Positions 6,817 through 56,955 of a stretch of 64,000 nt of DNA are shown here, piece after piece; position 1 is the stretch's first letter; each line of letters starts with the position of its first letter. The position numbers were made by a program, and so were the translations under genes. Under the pieces are notes generated by a model, which did not search any database, was not told the DNA's origin, and saw nothing but the letters and a program-made list of their open reading frames with translations. The DNA is from Octopus vulgaris (taxonomy: Eukaryota), in the NCBI GenBank assembly GCA_951406725.2, contig OX597817.1, positions 93,000,001 through 93,064,000 on the forward strand. Reading direction: 5' to 3'.

Positions 6817-6880
6817 CACTACGATCGTTTCATGGCTGTTAATTTCTTTAAATTTTCGAGTTACAGTCATTCATCAGGTG
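6817..6880 (-). ncRNA. Type I hammerhead ribozyme (minimal, palindromic GATC loop III)
   Basis: Reverse complement: cac CTGATGA atgactgt...acagccat GAAAC GATC GTA gtg. Confidence 0.85.
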
Positions 6881-6940
6881 GTTTAAATATTTATCTTGGC
6901 GAGGTTTAAACAATGAACTCGCCAAGAAAAATATTTAAAC

Positions 6941-7004
6941 CACCTGATGAATGACTGTAACTCGAAAATTTAAAGAAATTAACAGCCATGAAACGATCGT
7001 AGTG
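6941..7004 (+). ncRNA. Type I hammerhead ribozyme (minimal, palindromic GATC loop III)
   Basis: cac CTGATGA(6944-6950) atgactgt...acagccat GAAAC GATC GTA gtg; predicted cut after A7001. Confidence 0.85.
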
Positions 7005-7279
7005 ATATATTAAATATATTTTTTAATAATTTTGTTATATATTTTAATAATATAAATTAAATAATATTATGTATTGGCTTAAGTTTTTCATTGTATGATT
7101 TGCCTAATAGTGGTTTTGTCTCTAATTTAATATAATATAATATTCTACTATAAAATTGGATTCAATCTTAAATCTGATTTTTCCCTGTAAGTTTGGATTT
7201 ATTCCCTAATATTTATTATTATATATATATATATATATATATATATATATATATATATATATATATATATATATATATA

Positions 7280-8560
7280 CGAGGGGCGTTCAATAAGTAA
7301 TGCCTCTGACCCACTTCCCATAGCAGTAGAGCAACAACACTTGGCACAGTTATTAGTCTTTTCCTACATAGGAACTACTCAGAGTTATGCATTTCTCCCA
7401 TCGTTTGATACAGCTCTGGAGACCGTTTTTGTAGAAGACCCCAGCTTGGTCCTCCAACCACGACGTGACTTCAGAAATCAAGGCTGCATCATCTGGGAAA
7501 CGCTTTCCTTTCAAAATCAACTTCATGGCTGGGAAGAGGTGAAAATCAGAGGGTGCAAGGGGAGGAGTTCATAGCTGCACGCCTGTGCTTCTGATCTGGC
7601 GACACGCGAGTTGTGGACCGGAGCGTTGTCCTGCAGGAGGAGGATGCCTTTGCTGATCTTGCCCCGCCTCTTGATTTTGATAGCTTCTCTTAATTTCCTC
7701 AAAAGTGAAGCATAATAGGCTCCTGTAATTGTGGTACCCTTTGCCAGGAAATCTGTCATCACTACTCCGTCCTGGTCCCAGAAGACTGTGAGCATAACCT
7801 TGTCAGCGGAGGGCTGTACCCTTGCCTTCTTTGGAGGAGGTGAGTCACGGGGCTTTCACTGCATTGACTGGGCATTGACTGGGCTTTGGTCTCTGGATCA
7901 TAGTGATGGACCCAGGTTTTATCCTGTGTGATCAGTCTTTTGAAAAATTTTGACTCATCTTCTTGGCACATCTCCAAATTAATCCTCGAGCACTCAACGC
8001 GTTCTTGCTTCTGGAAAGGTGTGAGCAACCTGGAAATCCATCTGGCAGACACCTTTTGCATATGCAAATGGTCATGAATGATAGTTTCCACAGACCCGGT
8101 ACTAATCTTGACCTTATGGGCTATTTGGCGAATAGTTATGCGTTGACCTTCCAAAATGGCAGCCTCAACTTGACGGACAGACGTCTCATCAACGGCAGAA
8201 AGGGGCGACCAGATCTGGGAGCTGTTTCCACAGAGTTCCGACTATGTTTGAATTCACAATGCCAGCGTTTTACAAGGTCATATGATGGGGCATCATCACC
8301 ATAAGTTACTTTCATTTCATCAAAAGTCTCCCGTGGTGTGCGTCCTTTCAAATACAAAAACCAGATCACTGCTCGACACTCAACAGGCTCCATTTCACAC
8401 TTGACTCAGTTCAAACACCTGTAAATCAGAAACCACAATTAGTTCAGAGCTGTAATTTGCCACTTAATCTGTAGAGATATAAATAAGTGCACATGCAAAA
8501 TTTCAGCTAGATCAAACAACTGCAAGTGGGTCAGAGGCATTACTTATTGAACGCCCCTCG
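7280..8560 (-). mobile_element. Mariner transposon, full length, inactive transposase
   Basis: 37-bp perfect TIRs (CGAGGGGCGTTCAATAAGTAATGCCTCTGACCCACTT), TA TSD; frameshifted transposase from 8393 with ITQDKTWVHHYDPE and LLQDNAPVH; the YSPDL motif is deleted. Confidence 0.95.
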
Positions 8561-54143: not shown

Positions 54144-55300
54144 TTAATATAATTGTTTGAAACATTATATTTTTTAAATAATACATAATACTAATACTGG
54201 GGCATTAATATAATTAATAAGAAATTGATGAAATACATCATTTTATGTAAGGGTATGCAGTAACGACAAGATAAATAAGTATATTTGGTTTGTGTCAATC
54301 ACGAAAAGAATATACTTATCCGAAAAGTAGGCTTGGGATCATAGAACAACAAAATATATATATATATATATATATTTCCGTAAATATTACGACCAGATGG
54401 ACGATATATTTATATAAATACATCAAGCTATTCATTTAAAGATATTTAAAGTTAATTTAAAGATAATTAATGCAATTTAAATAATAGTAGTACGAATTAA
54501 TTGAATTTATTACTTGTAAAGAGCAGGTTAAGCTATCGATTGATCTTATACTGTTGTTTACAACTAAATACGGGGTTAAAAATGTATATGAGATATGATA
54601 GATGGCAGTTACTAAAACGTTCAATACGATATTTTTAAATATATAACCCCTCGTATAGTATTTCAAGATGTGCACATGCACGCTTTTTTGACCAGCAAAT
54701 AAGGAAGAATAGAGAGCAATGTTTTAATTAAATACATAGGGAGAGAGTAATGAGTAGATAATAATACGAATGAAAGGAACTAAATACTAATAAAGTTAAG
54801 CTTGAAAGCTACAGTTTAGAATTTGATTTGGAGAGGGAAAGAAATAAACTAGTTAGAAAACACAATACAAAAAAATGATTACGAAGAAGAAAACTAAAGG
54901 TACTAAATTTAAATATGATGAGTTCCAAACGACTTAATATAATAATGTGCATTACTTTTGTTGAAATACATATTCATCAATTGTATACCTGAAATATGGT
55001 CTTCTGCGATAGAAACAGCTTTCTAGTTAAATTAAATGAATAATCCATATTACCATCAAAACCTGTTCCATTTATTTGATAACAGTTATTGGACTCCATC
55101 TAATAAATTGATTATTCAATTGATTTTTATTTATATATATTCATAGGGAAATGAAAGGAATCCCTTAAATAAAGTATAATAAAAAGAACCTTGGAAACCT
55201 AAACAGAAGAAGTATTTTCATCTGGAAAAAAAAAATATATATATATATTCATGAGTCACGCTGATATAACACCAGAACGAACAAAAAAACAAATTAGTTA

Positions 55301-55369
55301 ATCCCGAACTCGAGTTTCTCTGTTAATTGCCAAATAAACTAGTTTGGATCTGTAGATCGTCAGCGAGAT
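55301..55369 (-). ncRNA. Type I hammerhead ribozyme
   Basis: atctcg CTGACGA tct...aga GAAA CTCGAG TT cgggat. Confidence 0.85.
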
Positions 55370-55673
55370 CACCAATTAATGAATAATTATGCAGTTGCAA
55401 ATACGTCCCGAAAACACGTGCGCAAGACAGCGTAAACATATAGTCCAGTAGTAAATAAACAAATTTAAAACTGTGTTCTATATGACCTTTCTAGCATGTA
55501 AGGAGCCCTGTCAAAGGTCTCCTCTCTGTGTATAAAAACATTTTATTCACTTTATATTTTTAAAAATATGCTATGTCTTGTGATTTTTATTTATGCATGA
55601 TAACCACTGGTAATAAATTATCTTAATTTTTTACCCTCATATTTACGATAGTATATATATATAATATATATAT

Positions 55674-56955
55674 AAATTAGAGAAAGACCACTATTATGTA
55701 ATTCAAACAACGATAGACATAAACCAAATCATAAAGAAAAAATACAATACATTATAAAACATATAACTAGATCACAAAAAGTACAAAAAATGAATAAACA
55801 ATATATAATAAGTAAAAAGACTACGTACGTTTCGTGGCTATAACTTCAATTCGAATTACAATTAAATTTAAATTTAATCGAAAAACAATTCAATTTAAAA
55901 GTATAGTCACTCTTCAGGTCAACAATAATAACAATAATAGTTAAATAAATAATCAAATAGAATTAAACAATATTTCCTAAAGAAATAAAATCATGATTCT
56001 TCGTATAGAAGAAACTCCGTTAACTGAATTTGAAGCTTAAAAAGTAGGACCGGGTGTCTATAATACATTTATCATGTTAAAAACCTAAGGTAAAAAAAAT
56101 AGAGTAAATAGATAGAAAAATGTATTTTATCTGTGAAGATATATTTTAGCTTTGAGAATAACATTAACAAACTATAGTATATCGTTTCACTACCTATACT
56201 CTAATATTTTACGTTACGAACTATTTTACAAATCAATCACATTTAATAATCTTAGATTTTAGTTCACATATAATAATTATAAAATAATAAAAATTAAATA
56301 AATGTACGTATCTAAATTGTAATTAACAAATGAAGCAATTAGAATTCCATTTTTTCAATCAATCAACATATAAATAAATAAATTACTCCATTATTTCTTA
56401 AATAAATATTGTACTTATCATTCCGAAAATATTTATGAAATAAAAAATTTTTAAATTCCAAAACTAAAAGCGTATTACTTATCGTTTATAAAATCATTTG
56501 CGAAAAAAGTACTTATTATTATTATTATTATTATTATTATTATTATTATTATTATTATTATCATTATTATTATTATTATTATTATTATTATTATTATTAT
56601 TATTATTATTATTATTATTAATATTATTAATATTAAATTCAATAGTACTAAATATAAAAAACTTTACACTACCTATACTAAAATACTTTACGTTACAATC
56701 TAATCCACAAAGTAACCAAACTAATACTTTTCGATTTTAGTTCACATATAATACTTATAATAATAAGAATAATTCAATAGTTGTACGTATCTAATTTATC
56801 ATTAACAAATAAAAGAAATTAGAAATCCATATTTTTCACTCAATAATCATATAGATTACATTATTATTTCTTAGATAAATTGTATCTTCGGAGAAGATAA
56901 GTATATAATTTATCTAAGAAATAATAACGTAATCTATATGATTATTGATTGAAAA
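55674..56955 (-). mobile_element. Penelope-like 3' end/pLTR remnant (same family as 6689-7220)
   Basis: Starts AAATTAGAGAAAGACCACTATTA after (TA)n; contains a hammerhead; internal direct repeat (~56185-56400 vs ~56665-56875) and a terminal ~49-bp fold-back (56833-56955). Confidence 0.6.
55819..55920 (-). ncRNA. Type I hammerhead ribozyme
   Basis: gac CTGAAGA gtgactata...tatagccac GAAAC GTAC GTA gtc. Confidence 0.88.

Follow-up and report, generated by a model that had tools for sequence, protein, structure and literature searches.

Hammerheads of Penelope-like elements (PLEs) and of retrozymes are already known, and the minimal hammerheads of metazoan PLEs were reportedly also treated by Lunse et al. 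in 2017. Within the PLEs, the Hydra clade is defined by the RWK, DKT and CxCX5C motifs, with the CCHH motif lacking, and table S2 of Craig et al. (2021; PMC8557442) gives one Hydra-clade pLTR hammerhead from Octopus bimaculoides. In vitro, minimal PLE hammerheads show poor cleavage, dimers included, and eight of nine Xenopus retrozyme dimers showed no cleavage. The PLE hammerhead of Anolis cleaves only with its protein, its mutants still insert in vitro, and no RNA-seq reads end at its cleavage site (PMC11167929). The available text of two accounts of metazoan non-LTR retrozymes (PMC7229834; bioRxiv 10.64898/2026.07.22.740005) names no cephalopod among their hosts; the 2026 definition of retrozymes also admits non-canonical type I motifs.

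The window analysed here is a stretch of 64,000 nucleotides from Octopus vulgaris (GCA_951406725.2, OX597817.1, positions 93,000,001 to 93,064,000), and by sequence comparison its motifs are a variant of the known PLE and retrozyme hammerheads. A sequence-only reading of this DNA had proposed hammerheads at 13 sites. The order CTGANGA, stem II, GAAA, self-complementary stem III and UH was found at all 13 on the strand proposed, so that the claim of a palindromic or nearly palindromic stem III throughout holds, and 12 motifs passed a type I hammerhead descriptor. The closing stem I, also claimed for every site, is present in 12; at 36267(-) the core, stem II and palindrome remain and the closing stem I pair is broken. 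The pairing base is kept in all eight other genomic copies of this family with an intact core (11 examined), and 36267(-) is a decayed hammerhead copy. A core scan allowing one mismatch added nothing further in the window, and a hammerhead-like stretch at 2527(+) was rejected as it has no stem I. Rfam models gave no hammerhead in the window at the gathering threshold and none among the 150 of 164 matches listed at E up to 10; the sole trace was Hammerhead_HH9 (20 bits, E 0.11-0.12) on the family F pair, in a search within 40730-43000. A genome search with Hammerhead_1, which scored just 73 of the roughly 263,000 initial candidates, returned six matches and is no census. The repeat search of the window was dominated by microsatellites, its useful output being the inverted arms described below.

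The fold data support type I hammerheads with a palindromic stem III and a dimer-type architecture. Stem III forms no stable monomer hairpin in 12 of the 13 motifs, and its self-duplex is worth -8 to -19 kcal/mol in 12 (-1.7 in family E). The motifs had been called minimal, a description that fits only family E, since stem II carries an insert of 27-77 nt in the other 12; among 29 unselected genomic matches, 16 have a stem II of more than 25 nt. Stem I has only 3 bp in families A, B and J, and the stem II inserts of A, C, I and the first G unit (G1) are no more stably folded than shuffled sequence (z -0.9 to 0.1). Ten sequence families were distinguished, more than the eight or so suggested earlier, and they represent only ten independent insertions because the 13 motifs include two inverted pairs and one tandem dimer. 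One insertion is the 3' end of a Hydra-clade PLE, five (families C, D, F, G and I) are retrozyme-like, non-coding head-to-tail units of 430-560 nt, and four families are without a proven parent; almost all of the insertions end in (TA)n.

The Hydra-clade insertion carries the family B hammerhead (36190..36267, minus strand; hammerhead coordinates run from core start to cleavage site), which has a 59-nt stem II hairpin (z -4.6), lies 37 nt before (TA)n and belongs to the 3' pLTR. Its core start is about 1.1 kb behind an RT/GIY-YIG remnant, and the element's 3' UTR covers 36160..37330 (minus). The ORF (37330..39166, minus) is 5'-truncated and interrupted by an (AAT)n expansion, and contains the C-terminal half of the reverse transcriptase (RT), a CxCX5C linker and, at the C terminus, a GIY-YIG endonuclease; with the (TA)n insertion and the hammerhead near the 3' end it has the layout expected of the clade. 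The linker is shared with an intact relative (L055), which also has the RWK and DKT motifs; the window copy is truncated before their position. Pfam gave no match on two pieces of the ORF, which a homology search did identify. From these motifs and by-eye comparison with Hydra proteins, the family B element is assigned to the Hydra-clade PLEs. Endonuclease end, UTR and family B hammerhead recur jointly in the genome (about 85-91% identity in full-length matches). Full PLEs with a hammerhead in both pLTRs are also present; locus L183 has the order hammerhead-ORF-hammerhead with an inverted partner, and its intact 727-aa ORF contains RWK, DKT and CxCX5C. The remnant behind 36267 and the existence of such elements support the proposed tie to PLEs.

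Family A occurs as an inverted pair of ends (6687..7134) with 217-nt arms, 99% complementary and flanked by two (TA)n tracts: a main copy with a long tail (6944..7001, plus) and an inverted partner (6820..6877, minus) that has a 3-bp stem I, a 39-nt insert in stem II and an 8-nt palindrome. Family J (55822..55917, minus), with a 77-nt stem II hairpin (z -4.6), is distantly related to A and shows compensatory changes in all three stems. Family E (40837..40863, minus) is abundant and has a 12-nt stem II and a 4-nt palindrome. No parent turned up for A, E or J. A placement of A as the pLTR of an endonuclease remnant in locus L006 was rejected because a microsatellite separates the two. A 1,967-nt tandem unit of A found no support in L179, whose two copies have microsatellite DNA between them without any match to a PLE. 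For family H (49596..49646, minus), locus L111 holds a relative of 76-79% identity at a distance of about 230 nt behind a Hydra-like endonuclease, and through this one relative H is probably tied to a PLE.

The non-coding units keep a period of their own in each family: C 465-478, D 478-491, F 428-429, G mostly 560-565 and I 483-501 nt. In the window, C (39530..39578, minus) stands within a partial tandem of its 465-478 nt unit, and D (40275..40359, minus), with a 62-nt stem II (z -4.2), has a unit of about 490 nt that is head-to-tail elsewhere. F (428-nt unit) has its main copy at 42699..42758 (minus) and an inverted 5' partner at 42882..42941 (plus). G is a head-to-tail dimer with hammerheads at 47904..47954 and, 560 nt downstream, 48464..48514 (both plus), the whole 560-nt unit being 47871..48430 (plus). 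I (55307..55363, minus) is an older family (82-90% identity) with a unit of about 495 nt. No PLE protein match was found inside the units of these five families in comparisons with Hydra-like proteins, and for F also by ORF listing. Fixed length, head-to-tail order, one type I hammerhead each and lack of coding capacity agree with retrozymes; the canonical stem I and II sizes with loop-loop contact of the 2020 definition are absent, the stem II inserts being 27-62 nt. The end-to-start joint of the G unit was present in contigs of all four runs examined, a joint that a circle and a DNA tandem would give alike. Copies end at two preferred 3' positions 85-100 nt apart: of 54 copies of A, 22 stop at 120-136 nt and a further 25 at 212-230; in G, 12 of 35 at 182-200 and 13 at 281-295; in D, 11 of 20 at 128-137 and six at 230-243. 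Two such classes are expected from two internal RT starts (PMC11167929).

Features in common with the Hydra-clade PLEs of PMC8557442 are the order RT-linker-GIY-YIG, the CxCX5C linker, (TA)n as target and, close to the 3' end, a type I hammerhead whose self-complementary stem III has 7-10 nt, and the motifs listed there have the stem I and stem II base layout of family B. Their stem II loops, however, are about 3-10 nt, whereas inserts here reach 59-77 nt, and their 3' ends lie 30-40 nt apart rather than 85-100. With the minimal PLE hammerheads described from metazoans (Cervera and de la Pena, 2014; PMC4209133) the motifs have in common the dimer-type stem III, an extra base before stem II, a U3-A8 variant, many families per genome, opposite-strand pairs and mostly solo copies. 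The palindromic stem III, unstable as a monomer, of that minimal class is found in 12 of the 13, and its small size and short-looped stem II of about 4-8 bp in one (E). Metazoan non-LTR retrozymes share with the five unit families a head-to-tail arrangement of non-coding units, each bearing a single type I hammerhead, a likely dependence on PLEs and a size range (51-972 nt) that includes those found here. The Octopus units differ in lacking the canonical 4-bp stem II and loop-loop contacts, and in being short arrays in (TA)n with PLE-type inversions, known from DNA.

The window is a hot spot for hammerhead motifs. Their density is 188 per Mb against 34 per Mb (95% CI 23-49) in an unselected sample of 85 stretches of 10 kb (850 kb; 29 matches, 0-3 in shuffles), an enrichment of about 5.5-fold, and none of 100,000 resampled 64-kb sets reached 12. 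A surplus of (TA)n targets was rejected as the cause, as the window has 6.6 arrays per 10 kb and the sample 10.6. Extrapolation of descriptor matches from the 850 kb gives roughly 90,000 motifs genome-wide (60,000-135,000), or about one per 30 kb and not the one per 5 kb that had been projected from the window; the large and diverse genome-wide population of predicted ribozymes envisaged by the sequence-only reading is supported. In PMC4209133 the counts were about 2,000-9,000 per genome, a rough ratio since the descriptors differ. The description of the motifs as mostly non-coding and (TA)n-associated also stood: 11 of the 13 are no more than 400 nt upstream of a (TA)4, a situation shared by 23.5% of random positions.

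Loose descriptors do produce false matches in this AT-rich, repetitive DNA, and all motifs might in principle be chance matches. A first scan of the 64 kb gave 12 matches against a mean of 0.39 (maximum 2) in 150 local dinucleotide shuffles; one of the 12, 61402(+), was false, and the motifs at 49646 and 36267 were absent. When the palindrome was required, 61402(+) and a second candidate, 27269(+), were lost, neither being palindromic, and the 12 matches were all the proposed motifs except 36267, against none in each of 25 shuffles. The density comparison with shuffled sequence, one of the checks proposed beforehand, upheld the hammerhead observation. One hammerhead pattern alone has 1,756 genomic matches and 2 with a reversed control. 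In 26 distinct matches with only core and palindrome fixed, stem I reaches at least 3 bp in 92% (3.6% with partners swapped) and stem II forms in 100% (34%). The position before (TA)n is, moreover, strand-specific. These shuffle, reversed-pattern, swap and position controls refute chance, which retains practically no probability. That all non-coding copies are merely remnants of coding PLEs, as 5'-truncated stubs or partial tandems, and that no non-autonomous family exists in its own right, is very improbable as a general account; it is true of B and probably of H, would suit the more than 800 nt of upstream sequence that A copies share without a period, and partial tandems are normal for PLEs. 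Partial tandems of coding elements, however, vary in spacing, whereas C, D, F, G and I each keep a single spacing, and what lies upstream of the ribozyme is the tail of the unit itself. The sequence-only reading had missed that these five families are fixed-length units and not plain pLTR stubs.

It is likely that the motifs form type I folds and stand at the 3' ends of PLE insertions in (TA)n, one of the Hydra clade and five of non-coding units probably copied by such an element's enzyme, and they are predicted to cut multimeric RNA only when neighbouring copies pair through the palindromic stem III. Building on what was directly observed (folds, families, tandem periods, Hydra ORF, 5' truncation, inverted partners and two preferred 3' ends), transcription through a tandem would yield RNA with two or more hammerheads, whose palindromes would pair across copies and let the cores cleave, releasing unit-length and possibly circularised RNA. 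The PLE protein would nick (TA)n, and reverse transcription would start at either of two internal sites, which according to family lie about 30-340 nt downstream of the ribozyme, and must therefore copy across an intact cleavage site (an uncut multimer or a re-ligated circle). Premature stops and strand inversion would leave mostly single, truncated or inverted copies, and single copies lacking a partner are probably inert. The long stem II may combine the 3-5 bp base needed by the core with a dispensable or protein-binding hairpin. The fold might instead be kept as a protein-binding or packaging signal, self-cleavage being weak, protein-assisted or incidental. The Anolis results fit this, genomic insertions here run across the uncut site, and the shared G tail segment 48098-48240 has a contig depth far above that of the ribozyme part, which suggests that the enzyme's handle lies outside the ribozyme. 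Yet the catalytic core bases, UH site and palindrome are all kept across many unrelated families, as catalysis and not mere binding predicts, and a compensatory U3-A8 core is also present (13 against 0-4 in shuffles); this alternative is therefore unlikely.

Over a thousand non-circularly permuted (pseudoknotted) hammerhead shapes were seen elsewhere in the Octopus genome. A permuted motif at the 3' end of Naiad PLEs has 186 exact-pattern copies and another, in a tandem family of 830-880 nt, has 1,086, and these scrambled-order shapes are predicted from sequence to be ribozymes. No permuted motif occurs in the 64-kb window and its ORF is of Hydra type, so the window motifs were rejected as Naiad ends. 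Naiads were published as lacking canonical hammerheads, an absence used to argue that the ribozyme is dispensable for PLEs or parasitic on them; about 18 of 54 published Naiad consensus sequences have the same scrambled order in a by-eye count. The type-SGC and type-CSG permutations are known from metatranscriptomes and from no genome of a known organism bar one weak GCS case (Eckert et al., 2023; PMC10085705). As there, the cleavage, GAAA and CUGANGA blocks stand in non-canonical order with stems I and III crossing, but here on PLEs in an animal genome; the S-G-C order with crosswise stems was found in the Naiad motif, in the motif S1 and in further families. Type-SGC has a stem II strand directly after CUGANGA, which the Octopus Naiad motif lacks, its partner standing upstream of the cleavage site; the median duplex is worth +0.9 kcal/mol downstream and -8.1 upstream (-5.0 upstream in shuffles). 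S1 is ambiguous (-5.1 and -7.3). Type-CSG was absent from the Octopus loci examined, and a MAFFT alignment of the Naiad and S1 motifs, with blocks out of register, was not used. We consider it likely that Naiad PLEs carry permuted, pseudoknotted 3' hammerhead ribozymes in several animal phyla. In nematodes these would be clean CSG; a version of S-G-C with an upstream stem II partner, not among the six permutations published so far, would occur in cnidarians, arthropods and Octopus. On the same reading, the Octopus genome would hold thousands of copies of non-coding tandem retrozymes with this fold, in addition to its roughly 90,000 type I motifs with a long stem II.

Because PLE hammerheads and retrozymes were already known, the result from the window is moderate by itself. 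Standard models miss long-stem-II motifs, and censuses of cephalopod ribozymes, such as the 235 Rfam hits of the giant squid, are thus far too low beside the estimated 60,000-135,000. A young, intact Hydra element and many non-coding units in one genome provide a system for asking what PLE hammerheads do. If the Naiad reading is true, permuted hammerheads would gain their first genomic, eukaryotic home, and the non-circular permutations a biological setting, and a topology interrupted between A9 and stem II would be added to them. With such a ribozyme at the equivalent position of Naiads, the argument for a dispensable or parasitic hammerhead would also fall away, and the ribozyme would become near-universal in PLEs.

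Thirteen hammerhead cores, each with a self-complementary stem III, are present in the window, at all 13 places where the sequence-only reading had put them. They fall into ten families: A (6820..6877, minus strand; 6944..7001, plus), B (36190..36267, minus), C (39530..39578, minus), D (40275..40359, minus), E (40837..40863, minus), F (42699..42758, minus; 42882..42941, plus), G (47904..47954 and 48464..48514, plus), H (49596..49646, minus), I (55307..55363, minus) and J (55822..55917, minus). The 13 motifs correspond to 10 insertions, since A and F each form an inverted pair and the two G motifs a tandem dimer. 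A first descriptor gave 12 matches in the window; over 150 local dinucleotide shuffles the mean was 0.39. A stricter one, requiring the palindrome and permitting one additional base on either flank of stem II, also gave 12, all the motifs except that at 36267, and none in 25 of 25 shuffles. The 36267 motif (family B) has lost its closing stem I pair, which is kept in eight copies with an intact core (11 other genomic copies were examined).

In the 2.8-Gb genome, a core-plus-palindrome pattern had 1,756 matches versus 2 for the reversed control, and a second such pattern 586 versus 113. The query of the first contained neither stem I nor stem II; among 26 of its distinct matches, stem I reached 3 bp or more in 92%, compared with 3.6% once partners were swapped across families, and stem II formed in 100%, compared with 34% after the swap. 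The observation made in the earlier reading is confirmed, while its interpretation is supported in part and needs correction on motif size and density.

The motifs had been called minimal, a term that fits only E; in the other 12, 27-77 nt lie between the core halves. The stem II insert forms a long hairpin in B, D, F and J (z -4.1 to -4.6), and the inserts of A, C, I and the first G motif fold no better than shuffles. In an unselected sample of eighty-five 10-kb stretches at round coordinates (850 kb), stem II exceeded 25 nt in 16 of 29 matches and measured 46-70 nt in 14. Rfam gave no hammerhead match at gathering score in the window; rescanning a single sub-region brought up just one weak hit, to Hammerhead_HH9, at the F pair.

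The earlier reading took about one motif per 5 kb as pointing to a very large population in the genome. The window has 188 per Mb; the unselected sample gave 34 per Mb (29 matches; 95% CI 23-49; 0-3 in eight shuffle runs). Extrapolation yields roughly 90,000 type I motifs (60,000-135,000) genome-wide, to which variants with a U3-A8 core (13 in 850 kb versus 0-4 in shuffles) are additional. Such variants occur at L041, L082, L086, L108, L110 and L112, some in 360-nt tandems. With descriptors that differ from those used here, about 2,000-9,000 minimal motifs per genome are reported for schistosome, coelacanth and Xenopus (PMC4209133); for the axolotl, whose genome measures 28 Gb, the reported number of type I motifs is 126,247. 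None of 100,000 resampled 64-kb sets held 12 matches, and (TA)6 arrays are rarer in the window than average. The 200 kb of flanks contain 11 matches, five of them type I motifs in the 10 kb adjoining the left edge (L110, G000:C4:92990001-93000000) and six in the other 19 stretches. The window is a hot spot for hammerhead motifs that reaches about 10 kb to its left.

Family B ends a remnant of a Hydra-clade Penelope-like element, PLE (36160..39166, minus strand), and in a homology search the best named protein matches were Octopus species proteins. Many copies of a related family carry an intact ORF of 727 codons that includes RWK, DKT and CxCX5C motifs; the Hydra clade is defined by these motifs and a preference for (TA)n (PMC8557442), and the assignment here comes from protein comparison by eye. 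One locus, L183, shows a ribozyme-ORF-ribozyme arrangement with an inverted partner. This young family (L051-L080, L183), with the ORF intact, many near-identical copies and frequent inverted pairs, is likely still or recently active. In L111, a relative of family H (76-79%) closely follows a Hydra-like endonuclease. Head-to-tail units measure 465-478 nt in C, about 490 in D, 428 in F, about 560 in G and about 495 in I, with no Hydra-like protein match inside them; the end-to-start joint of G was seen in contigs from four of four sequencing runs examined. For A, E and J no parent element was found, and for J two distant relatives occurred among the loci examined. Another locus, L181 (G000:C1:20002278-20004542), is a classical retrozyme array, partly inverted, in which a 359-nt unit bearing a short-stem hammerhead is repeated seven times.

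In 11 of the 13 motifs a (TA)4 follows within 400 nt, compared with 23.5% of random positions, and 23 of the 29 unselected matches have a (TA) tract within 200 nt downstream. Copies vary in 5' truncation and, in A, B, D and G, have two preferred 3' ends after the cleavage site, 85-100 nt apart, classes that come from copies picked by similarity with some loci overlapping. The tail segment of G may be a shared handle for an enzyme, since its contig depth is much above that of the ribozyme part. Tail copies of G without a hammerhead lie at 46101-46472 and 49270-49435, one of them a 179-nt inverted pair, and a perfect inverted pair of 175 nt without a hammerhead core lies beside (TA)n at 3947-4300.

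The window further contains a very long cysteine-rich exon (9670-14950, minus strand) with 222-nt tandem repeats, VWC and pacifastin Pfam matches and one frameshift near 13480; nine of the 13 motifs, from 8 of the 10 insertions, are on the same strand as this exon, a bias that is not significant. The remnants at 242-2563, 5394-6305, 25557-26814, 29565-34393, 42996-46080, 7762-8241 and 52194-53757 are ordinary: broken LINE-type RT/endonuclease, mariner-like and piggyBac-like sequences.

Outside the window, a different arrangement was found on PLEs of the Naiad clade, which are described as lacking canonical hammerheads, some, that of Octopus included, being flagged as "half core" (Craig et al., PMC8557442). 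The 3' end of the Octopus Naiad consensus has all three blocks in the order cleavage site (S), GAAA (G), CUGAUGA (C), with stems I and III crosswise, a non-circular permutation as defined by Eckert et al. (PMC10085705). Its pattern had 186 exact genomic matches versus 0 in the control. The 30 loci compared (L263-L292, e.g. G000:C2:67297623-67297674) place it at the 3' end of Naiad copies: a Naiad-type RT lies upstream in L277, an ORF end in L263 and L275, upstream sequence common to L277 in 26 of 30 loci (L277 counted), and in many copies about 60-70 nt separate the end from (TA)n. The strand after CUGAUGA is unpaired with that before GAAA (median +0.9 kcal/mol); instead, in 28 of 30 loci, a strand upstream of the cleavage site pairs, with a median of -8.1 against -5.0 for shuffled upstream sequence. 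This break between A9 and stem II falls outside the block model of Eckert et al. (PMC10085705), a weak point of the assignment.

A second permuted family, S1 (L293-L322, e.g. G000:C1:18816525-18818243), forms head-to-tail units of 830-880 nt that lack a long reading frame, the longest spanning 131 codons; it had 1,086 exact matches versus 0 in the control, and its stem II can pair either way (-7.3 upstream, -5.1 downstream). Scanning for the permuted order without a stem II requirement gave six matches in an unselected 1.114 Mb, versus 0-2 in shuffles, and, among all loci, eight stem variants whose stems I and III show compensatory changes. Permuted families beyond Naiad and S1 occur in L105 (7273, minus strand; about 53 kb left of the window), L326, L331, L044, L339, L306, L019 and L228; the scan found none within the 64-kb window. 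The Naiad and S1 shapes are predicted ribozymes.

The published Naiad consensus file (PMC8557442 supplement) was read by eye at CTGANGA matches, which misses line-broken motifs. Both stems in non-canonical order were seen in 18 of 54 families: six are clean type CSG (three Nippostrongylus by header, three from the same file part), nine, among them Acropora and Octopus, are S-G-C with an upstream stem II that opens with a G-C pair and varies in sequence between families, and three are S-G-C with stem II unclear. A nineteenth has a stem I of just 2 bp. No such motif was seen by eye in the remaining families, bivalves included, several core matches being ambiguous. No paper tying permuted hammerheads to PLEs emerged from a search of mostly non-subscription literature; the supplements of PMC10085705 may bear on the origin of its SGC and CSG variants. 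The same search yielded no description of the cephalopod hammerhead population, though Lunse et al. 2017 may include cephalopod examples and the supplements of bioRxiv 10.64898/2026.07.22.740005 could add species. The window motifs themselves are a variant of PLE terminal-repeat (pLTR) hammerheads and PLE-derived retrozymes, both already known, and one Octopus Hydra hammerhead is in a supplementary table of Craig et al. (PMC8557442); what is new is a matter of degree: stem II is long, the tail is longer and the motifs are abundant.

In 12 of the 13 motifs stem III forms no stable monomer hairpin, and in 12 of 13 its self-duplex reaches -8 to -19 kcal/mol, which is the dimer architecture reported for hammerheads of PLEs and newts. 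With such a design, a tandem transcript would cut itself into unit-length RNA, and single units or circles would remain uncut. Cleavage of the window motifs is a prediction from sequence; against this mechanism, PLE motifs are reported as weak in vitro (PMC4209133), eight of nine Xenopus dimers failed to cleave, and the Anolis PLE ribozyme requires protein and is dispensable for insertion (PMC11167929). In one PLE studied in vitro, reverse transcription has two internal start sites, both downstream of the ribozyme, which explains the optional tail (PMC11167929); the two 3' end classes here fit two such starts, with a longer tail. Insertions run across the cleavage site, so the template would have to be either a multimer left uncut or a circle closed again by ligation. 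Single, truncated or inverted copies make up most of those in the genome and are probably inert. In the inverted pairs at 6687-7134 and 42640-43001 both ribozymes lie within the arms, so that RNA read through the whole pair would fold into a long hairpin blocking the ribozyme, and this hairpin could be a substrate for RNA editing or silencing.
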